From assembly GCA_951406725.2 (NCBI GenBank), contig OX597831.1, positions 28,396,001-28,460,000 on the forward strand: DNA of 64,000 nucleotides, written 5' to 3'. The DNA comes from Octopus vulgaris. Taxonomy: Eukaryota. Below, in pieces: positions 16,114-52,450 of the stretch; position 1 is the stretch's first letter, and each line of letters begins with the position of its first letter. The notes beneath the pieces were generated by a model. That model searched no databases, had not been told where the DNA came from, and worked only from the letters and a program-made list of their open reading frames with translations. The position numbers and the translations under genes were made by a program.

Positions 16114-17740
16114 CACTCTTTTACAGAGTGTCAGGCCATTTTGAGCATTATAATATTTGTAATAAATTCTCGAAAGAGTACAAAAATGTATTTTTAATTT
16201 TGAAAATATGTCCTTCTTTGAAATGAAACTCCATACCTTCTAATAAATAATTGCACATTTTTACTGTTCGGTTGGTTACATATTCCGAGATTTAGTTCCG
16301 AATGTAGTTTGCTACTATCATTAAAAAATGTGTTTTTCACTTTTATAGAGCGAAGCGTTTTTTCCATAACCTTTTTCATTTTTTGATCATGAAGTAATAT
16401 AGACAGATTTTGAAAAGTGTTTCCCAGAACTTTCATATTTTGGGGCTTAAGAGTTACTATAGACGTTTTAAAATCACCGATTTTGCTTTTCGAAATACCT
16501 GAATATCGATTTATTTTACTCCTAAATTGCCAGATTAATTTAATTCAAAGAGCATTTTCTATTCTTTTACTCTTTTACTTGTTTCAGTCATTTGACTGCG
16601 GTCATGCTGGAGCACCGGCTTTAGTCAAGCAAATCGACCCCAGGACTTATTCTTTGTAAGCCTAGTACTTATTCTATCGGTTCTCTTTTGCTGAACAGCT
16701 AAGTTACGGGGACATAAACACACCAGCATTGGTTGTCAAGCGGTGTTGGGGGGACAAACACAGACACACACACACACACACACACATATTTATATATATA
16801 TATATACATATACATATACGACGGGCTTCTTTCAGTTTCCGTCTACCAAATCCACTCACAAGGCTTTGGTCGACCCGAGGCTATAGTAGAAGACACTTGC
16901 CCAAAGTGCCACACAGTGGGACTGAACCCGGAACCATGTGTTTCGTAAGCAAGCTACTTACCACACAACCACTCCTGTGCCTATTGATAAGTATTTTCTT
17001 AATTTCTACTACATTATTATCTTTGAGAAAATTCGTTTCGCTAAATTATATGGAATGTTATCTAGAATAAAATTCGGTTGGCATAATGTAAATAGATGTC
17101 ATGGTTCTGTAGATCTCTAATCTTGGTTTCTTTTATCACCTGTATGTCCGAGAAAAAGAAGTTGTTGCTGTACCCTACAATAAAGTGGTTGTGAAGGGTT
17201 ATTCTGCTTATGAGATTTTTAGCAAATTTGATCCACTGATCAAGATTTTCCTTTCTCAATCAATCACTCAGGAATCTTTTCTAATTTTCTTCCAAATAAT
17301 CACTTCAAATATTTCCAAATACATGAGACGATTGTTCACAGAATTCATGGTATCCTTAAAGTTACGCCGGCTTACGCAAACCATTGCAGTACCTAATTTT
17401 TATCAAACCTTATATAAAGTAATCACTTTCTAAAATAAATTGAAGCCCATCTGCACTAATTAACATCAATATAGTCTGGTAATTCATAAGTAAATAAATC
17501 ATGCCGATATTTGATATCTTTGATTTACGAGGAAATTCTACTTGAATTGCATCACGTTTAATATAAATATTTTCCTTTACCTTATTTGGCAGATGGTGGA
17601 GAATATTAAGATCATCTGTTATGAAGCTCATTATATGTGACGTAATATGTCTAGAAAATTACTTATGTAATATGTCTTCCATAAGTGGCTTGCACTAATG
17701 AATTTCAATTTTAAATCTTTCGGGAAATAGAAATAGTTTT
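16060..17740 (-). pseudogene. Heavily decayed Penelope-like RT/GIY-YIG element, interrupted by a SINE
   Basis: Minus-strand fragments YSNNFFFSDIQVIKETKI (cf. LPFLDILIKK), CQPNFILDNIPYNLAKRI (cf. CHPRHTRMNVPFCLARRI), MKKVMEKTLRSIK, ICNQPNSKN and RVKLHHQQIR*PYTRNTPL (cf. RMAVHKSQIRNPDYRKIPV) are colinear with the ORF at 27.7 kb; many stops and frameshifts. Confidence 0.7.
16562..16984 (-). mobile_element. SINE family A copy nested in the decayed PLE
   Basis: Full-length family A match. Confidence 0.88.
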
Positions 17741-22799: not shown

Positions 22800-23397
22800 T
22801 GTTTCCATTGTTCTTCGACGAACTGTTGTTGTCGCATGTAAGAGAAACCCAACTATCAAACGAGTCCGTCATGGGGATCAGCCCACCACCCACTATCAAC
22901 AAATCAGGGCAGGCGGTATTCCTCTGTCCTGTGGCTATGGTAAAAAAAAAAGGGCTTAGTAGAAGACGAGGCTGAAAGGACTGAGGAAAAACAAATTTCT
23001 GTTTCGGAAACGCCCTCATCCAATTTTTTAATGTTCCACTTGGAAAAGAAAATATGAGCGGAGAAGGAATTGCTCTCTTCCAGTAAACTTGTGAATAAGT
23101 GACTGTGACAAAAAGGGTTAGGGTAAATATCCCTACTCTAAGTATGCACCTGTAGATTGGACGAGAGCTCGTACCTTTGGTTGTCAGGGTAATCCTGGAT
23201 CTGTGGGTCCCTTGAATGACCCTATATGGAGGTTCTTCTGTATCAGGAGGACAACATCTTATGTGTTCACATACCTTGCATATTTTTACCTCTTTTCATC
23301 GTCTTTTCCCCACCACATTTTATGTAAGTCTTCACACAAATTGTAGATTCTTCTTGTATTGTCCCTCTCGTCTATGCCCACGTGGCAAATAAAGAAA
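22800..23397 (+). mobile_element. Decayed 3' end of a Tx1/L1-like LINE (ORF2 C-terminus, 3' UTR, AATAAA, (ATC)n tail)
   Basis: Fragments LLSHVRETQLSNESVMGISPPP..GQAVFLCPVAMVK and FHLEKKI*AEKELLSSS are homologous to 61630-61860; ends GGCAAATAAAGAAATCATCATC. Confidence 0.65.
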
Positions 23398-27142: not shown

Positions 27143-27629
27143 CCTATATATATAAAACTCAACTTGTGTGTCTGTGTGTTTAACTTCCTGGCACATCTCA
27201 TCCTAGCCAACAAAACGTAGAACCACCAAAAATGGGTCACTTAAAGTTTAGGCGAATGAAAATTGAACTGCGCTATTTCTGTTCCGAAATTCATCTCGCA
27301 AGTGCAAAAATCGATAATGTGTTTGTTTAGGCCTTATCCCATGCATTGAATAGTGAACTTTACTCAGTCAGCTGTTTGACGTGAACTGTGTTCACCACGC
27401 GTGCAAACATGCGTAAATTGCATGAAAAATAAAAAAATCAAGATATAAAAACGAATCGCCTTAAACATTGTAGAAATTTGGCAGAGAAATGAATTTTCGG
27501 GATATAGCCTGGAGGGTTTTTTCGTATTAATCGTTTGGACTTTGTGAACACATACCAATTGTTTTCATAACATTTTTAACGCTTTGAATTAAATGTAACC
27601 ATTTTGTAAAGCCGGGCAATACTGCTCGT
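27143..27629 (+). mobile_element. Non-autonomous Helitron-like element
   Basis: Begins CCTATATATATAAAACTC (cf. TCTATATATATAAAA 5' ends) and ends GCCGGGCAATACTGCTCGT (cf. GCCGGG..CTAGT 3' end); no TIRs seen. Confidence 0.55.
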
Positions 27630-27637
27630 ATATATAT

Positions 27638-28910
27638 AGATTCATTTTAGAGAACAATTATTTTATTTTTGACAATGATTTCTACAGGCAAAGATCGGGA
27701 ACAGCGATGGGCACGCGTACTGCACCATCTTTTGCCAACCTAGTGATGGGATACCTCGAGAAAATACTATACCGGATGACACTCGAGAATTATGGAAACA
27801 CCTTCGCCACCTATATCCATAACAACTGGAAAAGATACCTCGATGACTGTTTCATCATCTGGGACAAAGGCATAGAGAAACTTGAGGAATTTAAAATTCT
27901 ATTAAATGGAATAAATGACAATATACAATTCACGATGGACCACAACGAAAAAGAATTACCATTTTTAGACATCCTCATTAAGAAAACCGGCAACAAAATA
28001 GAGATAGATATCTACTATAAACCGACAGACTCTAAACAGTACCTACCCTTTGATTCATGCCACCCACGACACACTAGAATGAATGTCCCTTTTTGTTTAG
28101 CTAGAAGGATTTGCACCATAATATCAGACACAAACACCCGACACACACGTCTCCAGGAACTTAGAACCACACTCACAAATAGAAACTATCCACAGCCCCT
28201 AATAGACAGTGCAATCCAACGGGTACTTAAATTAAGTATAGAAGACCTGAGACAAACAAAACCAAAAAAGAAAGAACAATTAAAAACCCTTCCCTACATC
28301 TCTACACACAACCCACTCAACAATGAGGCCTTCAACCCCATACTACAAAGCACAGCCCTACTAAAGGGAGACCCAAAGATGAACCGGATCCTCGAAACAC
28401 ACACCATCATTAAAAGTAAACGGCAACCAAAATCCTTGAAAAGGATTTTAACCCAAGCTACACTGCACTCAACATCAACCACAAAACCAGCAGTTAGAAA
28501 ATGTGGAAGGCCCAACTGCGGAATCTGTGTCATCTTGAAAGAAGGATCAGAATTTATACTGGAACAAGGCCACCAGTTCACCATTAGAACAAACTTCACC
28601 TGCGCATCAGAAAACTTAATTTACGTCATAACATGCGCAGGCTGCAATAGGCAGTATATAGGACATACAAAAAATAGCTTACGTAACAGGATGGCGGTGC
28701 ATAAATCACAAATTAGAAACCCTGATTACCGCAAAATACCGGTCAGCGGACACATAGATAGATGTGCTGGAAATGTAAATCCGAAATTTACAACTAACCC
28801 GCTCTATAAATTCAGTGACAACGCCAACCTTCACACAACGCCAAAATAAAGAACTATATTTCATAAAAAAATTTAGACCAAGTTTAAACACCCTGGGCCA
28901 GGAATACTAA
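27638..28910 (+). CDS. Penelope-like element reverse transcriptase + GIY-YIG endonuclease, 5'-truncated, one frameshift near 28830
   Basis: Open frame FILENNYFIF..GTAMGTRTAPSFANL..RYLDDCF..LPFLD..YYKPTD..SCHP; Cys motif KCGRPNCGIC; LIYVITCAGCNRQYIG. The C-terminus KELYFIKKFRPSLN continues in a shifted frame to TAA at 28908-28910. Confidence 0.93.
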
Positions 28911-29069
28911 AACAAAAGATAAGTCCTCCGAAAAGGAGAACCAAATTTCACCACGGCCGCTACTTCAAACAGACACTCACTCTGACGGAAATATGCCTTA
29001 GTAAAAAAGGAAAAAATTCTTTCGTGCAAATCTGACCCTGATACATACGATACAGCTAAGGGTCAGACC

Positions 29070-37570: not shown

Positions 37571-38094
37571 ACCACCTCCAGCACAAGCTAGAGTCAGTCC
37601 AGTCCAGTTCTATTAGCTGTACAATGAAGCGGTCACAGTCTGGTTGTTTTGTAAATTCATATATTTATATTTTATAACACAATTCATAAATAACAATAGA
37701 GTCATTGGTTCCAGAAAGTGCAGCAGGCCAATCACGGTTTCACTGATAGTGATGGCGAGGGACAAGGGAGTGTCGGTGTCTCGATGCAGAATATATATAT
37801 GAAGGAACGTGATTGGTATTGTACCGTTTTTTTTTTGTTGTATTGCCAATTTATAGCCAACGTAGATACGGACCAGTGAAAGACACACACGCATGCACGC
37901 ACGTACACACACACACAAACACAAATACACACACGTACGCAGACACACACATGCTCATATACATGCACGCACAAACAGACACAGACAGACACAATGACAC
38001 GTACTGAGGTGTTACGAACCTAGGAACTGTGGTACCTAGTATTCTTTCAAATGTCATCTTCTGAAGACGATATGACGTGTGTATATATAAGTGT

Positions 38095-38940
38095 CCACCC
38101 CCACCCACGCTTACACACACACACGCACACATACACACACACGCACACATACACACACACATATCAAACCAGGAAAATTACAAGTAGCAAACCAATATAA
38201 AATGTAATTAAGGCGGCGAGCTGGCAAAATTGTTAGCACGCCGGGCGAAATGCTTAGCGATATTTCGTCTGTCTTTACGTTTTGAGTTCAAATTCCGTCG
38301 AGGTCGACTTTGCCTTTCATTCTTTCGGGGTCGATAAATTAAGTGCCAGTTGCATACTGGAGTCGATCTAATCGATTGGTACTCTCCCCCAAAATTTCGC
38401 GCCTTATGCCTACAGTAGAATATAAAATGCAATAAATAATTTTGCTTTTCTCGCTGAGGGAGTTAGAATCAGGCGTATCTTCACGTTTCGGACGCGTGTC
38501 TTTCATCAGTAAAAAAAAAGAAATAACGAGTAGAGAAGAGAGCAAATGACGCACACACACACGTCCCCCCACGCGCGCGCGCACACACATATATCATGTC
38601 ATGAAAATTATAACTAGCAAAGCATTATAAAGCGCAATAAATATTTTTGCTATTAATTTCACGCTGAGGGAAATAGAAATAGGCGTGTCTTCACGTTTCG
38701 GATACATGTCTTTCATCAGAGAAAAAAAGAAATAAAGAGTAGAGAGAAGAGAGGAAAGGACACATGTATTTATATCAATTCATAAATATTACAACTCGCA
38801 AAGCTATATAAAAAAAGCAATAGATATTTTTGCTATCAATTTTACGCTTAGGGAAATAGAAATAGGCCTGTCTATACGTTTCGGATGCGTCTCTTTCATC
38901 AGAAAAAAAGAAGCAATAAAGTGTAGTGAAGAGAGGTGAA
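38095..38940 (-). repeat. Tandem array (~180-210-bp units, 3 full plus 1 partial), each full unit carrying a minimal hammerhead motif
   Basis: Minus strand CTGATGA-AAGA...TCC-GAAA-CGT at 38478-38513, 38688-38723 and 38871-38906 within repeating flanks. Confidence 0.72.
38208..38420 (+). mobile_element. SINE family B, full length, with probable target-site duplication
   Basis: AAGGCGGCGAGCTGGC head; AATATAAAATG(T/C)AAT on both sides. Confidence 0.85.
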
Positions 38941-39402
38941 AATAGAAAAAAGTATATTTAAAGAATAGAATTTGCATGGAAGACAAGAAATCCTCTTGTA
39001 ATCTTTAAATTAAGTTAGAAATGCCTGAATAAGAGAAGACAAAAACAAAGGATTTCGAACACTGGTGAGTAAGGGAGCGTGTTTATGCATGTATGAATGT
39101 ATGTATATACGTGTGTGTATGTAGTTATTTTAGAAATGGCTGTTTGTGATTGGGAATATTAATGTATGTAGGCATGCATGTGCTGTTATGTAGCATTGTA
39201 TTCATATATGGATATATTGTCTGAATGTCTGTCTGTTCGTGTTTGAGTAGTTGGTGGTTTATTCTCAGTTTTGGAGAAGCTGCGAGCGAGTTAGTGTGTG
39301 CAACCTTAATTGACAGTGTTAGCTTGTGTATGAGGCAGTGAGCGTGTTTGTGTGAGTGAGTGTATGTATGCGCGATTCTATTTCAACGGAAGAGTTTTTT
39401 TC

Positions 39403-41488: not shown

Positions 41489-41629
41489 TTTGCATACAAG
41501 AATTCATACACATTTTTATTGTCTGTAGATTCTTTTAAATTTTGAAAATGTAATGCATTTTACTACACTCAGACTGTATTCTCATTCATTGTGTGTATAA
41601 ATTCTTTGGGACACACATGGTATGTATGC

Positions 41630-41830
41630 GACCACGTGTGTACCGTTGGCGATATTTTTCCTCCGTCTTCCCTTCTTTGGATCTTTCCTTTTCTTATGTT
41701 TCTGACGAAGAGTTCCGCTCGAAACGTTAAACCCTCCTTCTTTCCTGAGCGTCCAATAATACTATACTTGTTCCACGTCCTCGCGTTGTTGTGTTTTCTC
41801 TTTGTGTTTCATGTTTGGATTAACTATGTA
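41630..41830 (+). mobile_element. ~200-bp hammerhead-containing dispersed repeat (retrozyme or PLE pseudo-LTR fragment)
   Basis: Closely similar copy at 52253-52450; both end in TA/TG microsatellite. Confidence 0.75.
41698..41732 (+). ncRNA. Minimal type I hammerhead ribozyme
   Basis: GTTT-CTGACGA-A-GAG ttccg CTC-GAAA-CGT-T-AAAC: stem I GTTT/AAAC, intact core, palindromic ACGT stem III. Confidence 0.72.
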
Positions 41831-44409: not shown

Positions 44410-44509
44410 CACACACATACATATATGAAATTTATAGAAAAACAAAAGGAGACAGGTGGATGAACAACAAGCAGGTGTATTAGTTTGAAGCTCGGGAAAG
44501 TGAGAAAGT

Positions 44510-44545
44510 CTTTTACGTTTCGGACTTACTCTCTTCAACAGAAAG
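44510..44545 (-). ncRNA. Decayed minimal hammerhead ribozyme
   Basis: CTTT-CTGTTGA-A-GAGAGTAAGTCC-GAAA-CGT-A-AAAG; flanks resemble 41900-42000. Confidence 0.5.
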
Positions 44546-44992
44546 GAATAAAAGAAAATAAGCAGCGAGAGAAAAATAATAAAATAAATTTAGTGATCAA
44601 ACATATATATATATATATATATATTTCCTATCTTGTCTGTAATGGATTTGTGATTATTCGGTGGTACAGAAGTGTTTTTCGACTTCTATCATTGGCGATA
44701 TAGGTACTCATGTAGTACCCTTATGTATATATGTACATATCTAATATTGTATGTATATATTTTATTAATTTGCCTGTACGGCTAGTAATTCGCTTACCAC
44801 TTGTGATGGTATTTCAATAATACCATCCCTATGTGTATATATATCACGTCACTTCACGTGACCAACCAAACCATCAGATGTTGCTACACTTCGCTGGTCA
44901 CAATGCGTTCGCATTGTTTTAGCCTTCGAATGACGCCACCCGGCTGGCTAAGCGAGCCGGCCAATGTATATATATATATATATATACACACA

Positions 44993-51861: not shown

Positions 51862-52252
51862 ATTGAGCAGCTGTTTCACAAACTTTACTCTCTCCCTCGT
51901 TGAGGAGAGTAAAATCTAGCTAGATGGTAGCAGTTCTTAGATTACTTTGTTCTCTTAATTTTTTTCGTTTTTGTTAACATTTTGTTTTCTCGTTCCACAT
52001 TTTCTCACTCCACATTTTGCAGCCACCTTACACTCGTTTTTCTTTTATCGTGTTTTCTCATCGACTAGCGTTCTGTTTTCAAACAAAGCAAGCCATGTTA
52101 TTTGAGCCGGAAAGATTTCTTGGAGATACAAAGCTTGATATATAAATTATAGTGTTTCCATAGCATGAAACTATTCATAGCTAATTTAAATACTGTGTAA
52201 ATTAAATGATATATACATGCATACATACATGCATATATATATACAGACATAT

Positions 52253-52450
52253 CGCGTGTGTATCGTTGGCGATTTTCCTTCTCCGTCTTCCCTTCCTTGG
52301 ACCTTTCCTTTTTCTATGTTTCTGAGGAAGAGCTCCGCTCGAAACGTTAAATCCTCCTTCTTTCTTTCCTTTCGTGAGCGTCCAATAACATTATACCTGT
52401 TCAACGTCCTCGTGTTGTGTTTTCCCTTTGTTATGTTTGGATTAACTATG
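52253..52450 (+). mobile_element. Second copy of the hammerhead-containing ~200-bp repeat
   Basis: Colinear with 41630-41830. Confidence 0.75.
52318..52352 (+). ncRNA. Minimal type I hammerhead ribozyme
   Basis: GTTT-CTGAGGA-A-GAGC tcc GCTC-GAAA-CGT-T-AAAT: intact core and 4-bp stem II. Confidence 0.72.

Follow-up and report, generated by a model that had tools for sequence, protein, structure and literature searches.

A decayed tandem array with Penelope-type minimal hammerhead motifs in Octopus vulgaris and its mostly solo relatives

Hammerhead motifs in metazoan retroelements have been described in Penelope-like elements (PLEs) and in non-LTR retrozymes. The hammerheads of metazoan PLEs, as characterised in the sections of Cervera and de la Pena 2014 (PMC4209133) drawn on here, are minimal type I motifs with an additional nucleotide separating position 9 from 10.1, a palindromic 15.2-16.2, a short stem I and a highly conserved G10.1-C11.1 pair, and they occur mostly as dispersed single motifs with extreme sequence variability within a genome. 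Metazoan non-LTR retrozymes are non-coding, with a GC content of 30-40%, and consist of head-to-tail units in the 170-400-nt range with one type I hammerhead per unit. According to the part of Cervera and de la Pena 2020 (PMC7229834) consulted, the tested retrozymes carry canonical hammerheads, the minimal ones being assigned to PLEs, and retrozymes recur as arrays of one unit length, with highly self-paired circles. That the end of a PLE can be amplified locally through unequal crossover has been proposed by Li, Clavereau and Pollet 2026 (10.64898/2026.07.22.740005) for a system of short arrays and solo derivatives of a pLTR-like sequence, in which, by the portion of that report available, 8 of 9 tested dimers did not cleave. 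For octopus, Craig et al. 2021 (PMC8557442) list, in the part consulted, a PLE, Hydra-1_Obim, with a hammerhead near its 3' end and a preference for (TA)n, and an octopus PLE-type hammerhead is therefore already in print. A literature search returned no paper describing a cephalopod retrozyme, and only Craig et al. surfaced for both terms.

The window analysed here is a stretch of 64,000 nucleotides from O. vulgaris, and contains an array of short repeats with minimal hammerhead motifs, which a preliminary description had interpreted as a tandem satellite and as a candidate retrozyme family mobilised by PLEs. The array resembles the metazoan PLE hammerheads in its extra nucleotide 9/10.1, palindromic 15.2-16.2 and short stem I, and its relatives in being mostly dispersed single motifs of very variable sequence; unlike them, the array copies lack G10.1-C11.1, carry G17, have a stem II of 2-3 bp and adjoin no PLE ORF. 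With the retrozymes it shares the absence of coding sequence, the GC content, the head-to-tail arrangement in the stated size range and the single type I hammerhead per unit, but it has a minimal motif, stands alone as an array and folds no better than shuffled sequence. It does not recur at one unit length, does not carry complete ribozymes (by an approximated filter) and is not highly self-paired, and on these grounds falls outside the retrozymes. The short array and solo relatives are reminiscent of the system of Li et al., from which it differs in missing an approximation of their 'active' filter and in that no pLTR parent was found. Hydra-1_Obim is similar in the hammerhead near the 3' end and the (TA)n target, but its stem II is different and its stem III is a hairpin.

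Layout and state of the array

The general hammerhead pattern has six matches in the window against 0.05 expected, and three of the six are the minus-strand array cores, CUGAUGA-A-[stem II]-GAAACGU, at 38483-38509, 38693-38719 and 38876-38902. Their start-to-start periods of 210 and 183 bp, together with the alignments, bear out the three head-to-tail units of the preliminary description (Table 1). The units are 80-87% identical in pairwise comparison, with K = 0.15 (units 1 and 2), 0.23 (1 and 3) and 0.22 (2 and 3), and are joined by (TA/TG)n-type spacers of unequal lengths, the 210-bp period being due to the spacer between units 2 and 1. Unit 1 is split by a SINE-like repeat, with a depth in the millions and ten further matches in the window. 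Most of what had been read as a partial unit cut off by this SINE belongs to the 3' tail of unit 1, as seen from the 11-bp SINE duplication and from the match of this tail to the final part of unit 2. The possibility of a complete fourth unit was rejected. Past the tail of unit 1 there is only spacer-like microsatellite, together with about 14 nt in which another unit may begin. Next to the hairpin at the 3' end of the array (38040-38076), the plus-strand sequence is similar to what lies upstream of unit 3 and also to the 5' end of the sister family described below, and the hairpin may be an inverted element start or a product of chance. The array was rightly said to be without coding capacity, no Pfam family being found in the single array ORF examined (38342-38593). 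The term satellite, by contrast, was overstated: TRF gives 1.8 copies under mild settings and none with a period >50 under the settings of Li et al., and the locus is single-copy.

Table 1. Window coordinates of the array, its parts and two related copies
Feature	Position	Strand	Remarks
Unit 3, 183 bp, 5'-most in RNA sense	38765..38947	-	142/174 aligned columns identical to unit 2
Unit 3 minimal hammerhead core	38875..38902	-	A10.1.C11.1; U.U at first stem I pair; N17 is A in this window and G in two further runs
Unit 2	38590..38764	-	From sequence alignment
Unit 2 minimal hammerhead core	38692..38719	-	A10.1.C11.1; C.A at second stem I pair; N17=G
(TA/TG/CG)n-type microsatellite spacer, units 2/1	38555..38589	.	
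Unit 1, portion before SINE	38419..38554	-	115/133 identical to unit 2
Unit 1 minimal hammerhead core	38482..38509	-	A10.1.C11.1; 3-bp stem II; A.A at first stem I pair; N17=G
SINE-like repeat within unit 1, very high copy	38205..38418	+ (orientation inferred)	11-bp target duplication 38194-38204 / 38419-38429
Unit 1 3' tail past SINE	38163..38193	-	25/32 identical to unit 2 end (alignment 38163-38194)
Trailing (TG)n microsatellite and G-run, like unit 2/unit 1 spacer	38077..38162	.	Read from sequence, without statistics
Short hairpin, first arm like a unit start	38053..38076	.	Read from sequence
Two solo sister copies, ending at (TA)n	41625-41828, 52245-52448	+	4-bp stem I, G10.1-C11.1, GUU

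Positions in the cores follow the hammerhead numbering convention. The CUGANGA and GAAA boxes, in order and followed by U16.1, are present in all three units, as are the extra A between 9 and 10.1 and the palindromic ACGU stem III; the core formula first proposed, itself or in a variant, for each unit thus stands for the boxes and ACGU, but its full GAC/GUC stem II is found in unit 1 only. The G10.1-C11.1 pair is replaced by A.C throughout, stem II is three pairs long in unit 1 and two pairs long in the other units (MFE -1.5, 0 and 0 kcal/mol for units 1, 2 and 3), and the contiguous stem I pairs number 0, 1 and 0, against 4 in the young sister copies. In the predicted folds no pair of stem I or stem II exceeds a probability of 0.07, and for the inter-unit stem III the limit is 0.003. 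The units fold no better than shuffled sequences (z-score +0.4 to +0.8 per unit, 44-55% paired), and their divergence of 15-23% could have erased an earlier fold. Rfam scans, of the kind suggested earlier, detect no hammerhead here at E<=10; what they return is low-complexity microRNA noise. The array likewise does not pass our approximate version of the filter used by Li et al., which asks for two or more adjacent units with complete hammerheads (a TRF call and an MFE below -5), with no TRF call and hammerhead MFEs of -3.5 to -4.5 kcal/mol.

The cleavage site reads GUG in two units and GUA in unit 3, as originally noted, but GUA is probably derived and offers no rescue. Unit 3 has G at N17 in an organism C contig spanning units 2 and 3, and also in a single contig, with a depth of 5.4, from a further organism A run; in that contig C15.2 is changed and the ACGU palindrome broken. 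Because unit 3 reads GUG in these two other runs, G17 is by parsimony probably ancestral to all three units. According to the part of PMC3884650 consulted, G17 strongly impairs minimal hammerheads and is tolerated better in tertiary-stabilised ones. Given this effect, the A10.1.C11.1 mismatch and the broken stems, the array copies are predicted to be inactive in self-cleavage. The initial caveat that they may be dead is strengthened by a mismatch common to all units, a stem I lesion in each and a probably ancestral G17.

The array is single-copy, with a depth at flank level at 80% likeness except in the core and spacer. The best match elsewhere in the genome, from a DNA search in which two candidates were scored, is 77% over ~65 nt; nothing elsewhere matches the units beyond ~70 nt at 77-79%, and a unit-specific 21-mer, with one mismatch allowed, occurs at three other places, at none of which a tandem is reported. 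The array is also present in the run labelled as organism C, with 22 differences over ~475 bases, and organism B differs from it at 2 of 739. Because K between units is 0.15-0.23, set against these 22 differences, the age of the array is several times that of the split from organism C.

Relatives in the genome and the link to Penelope-like elements

Because the DNA search had scored only two candidates, the family was collected from the genome (2.8 Gb, 227 contigs) by core patterns. Two A10.1 patterns gave 29 and 44 matches and a G10.1 pattern 130, with none for the reversed controls. The loci examined comprised 29/29 and 30/44 of the A10.1-pattern matches, 30/130 of the G10.1-pattern matches and 20 more fetched by position. 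Once duplicates had been dropped, along with three loci that overlapped or nearly duplicated others and ten that belonged to a distinct subfamily, 82 were left. The 82 loci are heterogeneous, and 40 of them, termed core members, share a downstream tail. They do not form the tandem retrozyme family with a ~200-bp unit that had been envisaged: the relatives are mostly solo, no other copy of the unit at >=80% was found, and a same-strand neighbour at <600 nt is detected by profile in 5 of the 82 other loci, at unrelated offsets of 88, 105, 218, 285 and 452, a count inflated by a locus (L168) chosen for its close pair. At that locus the repeat is 105 bp with breakpoints internal to the element, while another (L107) is an exact 452-bp repeat, and both look like DNA-level duplications. 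Inverted neighbours within 1 kb occur at 6/82 loci, and among the 44 A10.1-pattern matches close clustering is seen only for the three in the window. A further locus (L106, G000:C16:6596000-6605500) has two identical hammerheads 1.3 kb apart, which lie in a 514-bp direct repeat with nested inverted repeats.

In 18/40 core members the start of a microsatellite falls at +110 to +155, compared with a background of 0.169 (p=3e-5), and in unit 2 it falls at +125, so that the family has a fixed 3' end. Of the 37 core loci with an upstream microsatellite, 28 have the nearest one somewhere between -16 and -266, and the window units begin at about -50 relative to the core. Five pairs of core loci align upstream, two of them to about -240, and a segment-wise upstream test is barely above background, which weakly suggests a 5' extension of the family beyond the unit start. 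Because the upstream limits spread and the alignment of some pairs reaches about -240, the natural unit length of the family is probably not 183 nt. In its fixed 3' end at a microsatellite, in the variable 5' truncation that the spread of upstream limits weakly suggests and in its occasional inverted neighbours, the family resembles the 3' end (pLTR) of an autonomous PLE. The pairable stem I and NUH triplet looked for in a consensus are present in the family majority, with U or C at N17 in 35/40 core members and G in 2, but are absent from the three array copies; the state of the majority argues for an ancestor that was a proper hammerhead.

The family majority keeps the G10.1-C11.1 pair and a stable stem II. 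A hand tally of 86 genome matches found all four tested G positions kept in 42, and A10.1 in 27/86 compared with 11/172 G-to-A changes at G5 and G8, an approximately fivefold excess (p=3e-7). A10.1 may on this count be inherited from source elements, as opposed to plain decay, and the pattern suggests either that stem II variants were spreading at a time when the core was under selection or that mutation was context-dependent. The G-to-A counts by position are 27 at 10.1, 14 at 10.2, 5 at G5 and 6 at G8. The A10.1-pattern matches are split 11:33 between forward and reverse strands and the G10.1-pattern matches 57:73. In a 16-row alignment examined for covariation, two rows of which (from the sister family) are out of register, 73% of cells are paired and no two-sided changes are seen.

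Several other occurrences were recorded. Within the window, a degenerate solo superfamily member lies at 44476-44554 (-; 19.6 bits), and a CUGAGGA...GAAACG match at 22981-23012 (+), with a longer spacer and without a family match, is possibly due to chance. Elsewhere, a 402-aa frame for a rhodopsin-type GPCR (L030:264-1469, -) has a same-strand family hammerhead ~60 nt upstream of it, and another family hammerhead is followed ~800 nt downstream by an SK channel frame (L021).

The sequences suggest that the superfamily consists of Penelope-type hammerhead elements that lack coding sequence and have their end at (TA/TG)n. The genome is rich in PLEs with RT and GIY-YIG domains, and in one subfamily, whose core is related, 3/10 loci have this core immediately 3' of a same-strand Penelope-type RT-endonuclease ORF. 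The Hydra-1_Obim motif has 24 exact genome matches, and coding sequence is kept upstream at 8/15 Hydra-motif loci, whereas a Hydra C-terminal probe (tblastx) gives at most one weak match, 1.2 kb away, among the 40 core loci of the array's family. Probes that we take to be of Poseidon type and Neptune type, from their motifs, reveal no RT or GIY-YIG remains upstream of any of the 40. Pfam searches of 54/292 ORFs around family loci yield one RT only, in a different core subfamily, and young Neptune-type PLEs show no hammerhead by regexes within 1.5 kb of GIY-YIG. The element is probably either non-coding and non-autonomous, or the heavily truncated end of another, unprobed PLE lineage; a long 3' UTR may also have kept coding sequence out of reach of the probes. 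No autonomous partner of the array's family was found, and PLEs are its presumed mobilisers. The idea of a PLE-mobilised retrozyme is retained as far as the PLE-type minimal type I hammerhead and the abundance of PLEs are concerned, but not as a tandem retrozyme family.

PLE remains are also found apart from these loci. The window contains a young 5'-truncated PLE with RT and GIY-YIG at 27599-28940 (+), 98.7% identical over 396 aa to another locus (L144) whose frame is listed as 781 aa; its relatives have no hammerhead in the 3' region by regex. Old PLE coding fragments lie at 16142-16258 and 17413-17637 (-), and at a locus of a different core subfamily (L040) Hydra-like coding remains occur at -1120 to -902 from the core (46% identity, E 7e-19). 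No host gene was identified in the window, 81/88 of its ORFs giving transposon domains only, a survey that short exons would escape.

A young sister family, visibly homologous to the array's family in core and tail, has 5,944 core matches genome-wide, and most of the 14 copies inspected have fixed element ends at a distance of ~205 bp. Both copies in the window have intact stems. Among the first 100 of the 5,944 matches, no sister core has a neighbour at ~200 bp, the closest pair being 1.1 kb apart.

Origin of the array

The single-locus array is best explained, with reasonable though far from full assurance, as the fossil of one Penelope-mobilised insertion that could already no longer cleave itself, and that was later triplicated at the DNA level. 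An old PLE-type hammerhead element would have been reverse-transcribed into a (TA/TG)n microsatellite, probably with 5' truncation ~50 nt upstream of the core. By parsimony, the inserted copy would already have carried A10.1.C11.1 and G17, with little or no self-cleavage. Unequal crossover or slippage between the flanking microsatellites would then have produced the three units. After the triplication the units diverged by 15-23%, each acquired a distinct stem I lesion, and unit 1 was split by the SINE. Triplication at the DNA level is favoured because the relatives are mostly solo, the tandem periods elsewhere are unrelated and the unit is single-copy. Several results speak against it. The differences private to the units, 13, 8 and 14 (p=0.41), are star-like and fit a single event as well as two, with no sign of two successive duplications, and the unit ends combine the family 3' end with a microsatellite, as a circle junction would. 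To these come the invariance of the core columns discussed below, the excess of A10.1 over plain decay, the weak showing of the family's 5' extension, the lack of an autonomous partner and the tolerance of G17 in tertiary-stabilised hammerheads.

Writing of the three units in one event is possible but clearly less probable. Here a PLE reverse transcriptase would have made more than one turn of a ~185-nt RNA circle, or copied a multimeric transcript, with (TA/TG)n as the junction, and the array would be a dead retrozyme multimer. The star-like divergence and the microsatellite unit borders fit this account, as do the trailing spacer and ~14 nt, which resemble terminal redundancy, the discrete ~205-bp form and fixed ends of the sister family, and the lack of RT or GIY-YIG remains upstream of the core loci with the Poseidon- and Neptune-type probes. 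However, the array period is found at no other locus, the unit has no close relative elsewhere, some relatives reach further upstream than the unit start, and the first 100 sister-family cores include none with a ~200-bp neighbour. Moreover, a G17 monomer would hardly self-excise, and the units are not highly self-paired. A wider version, in which the array is a rolling-circle multimer fossil of a SINE-sized (~200-370 nt), non-autonomous superfamily with a minimal hammerhead, with (TA/TG)n as both junction and target, a young branch of ~6,000 intact solo copies and A10.1.C11.1 propagated from source elements, is more doubtful still.

In contrast to decay after local triplication, transcription of the array, with weak dimer cleavage or another RNA-level role, would have kept the cores by selection, which we consider very improbable. 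The preliminary description had proposed a comparison of core and flank, and the core is indeed the more conserved: 14/14 core columns are invariant among the units compared with 81/120 flank columns (p=0.006), although the test is biased, the array having been chosen for its intact cores. This ascertainment accounts for much of the invariance, and invariant runs of 11 and 10 are expected somewhere by chance with p=0.11. Of 20 listed substitutions that separate units 2 and 3 from their organism C counterparts, none falls in the core, where about one is expected, a difference that is not significant. Against selection, every unit has a different lesion beside the cleavage site, unit 2 has an additional one at position 2.1 (38720) in organism C, one allele of unit 3 has a broken ACGU, and the SINE splits unit 1. 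The three contig runs presumed to be RNA have no piece over the units and are uninformative on expression. Equally improbable is the successive insertion of three family members into one microsatellite, for which the (TA/TG)n ends of the family and intact cores, explained by selection during the elements' active life, could be cited, but which is at odds with units 80-87% alike over their full length, where matches elsewhere extend over at most ~70 nt at 77-79%, and with the rare G17 common to the units.

The array and its young relatives as objects of study

The locus, a local and decayed array whose motif is of a known kind, matters little in itself and is a poor candidate for tests of cleavage or circular RNA. 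The young sister copies in the window (41625-41828 and 52245-52448) are the better test object, and could reveal whether solo minimal hammerheads cleave in trans or give circles. Cleavage of hammerhead dimers was reportedly studied by Lunse et al. in 2017. What the array illustrates is a PLE-type hammerhead end turning into a retrozyme-like short tandem.
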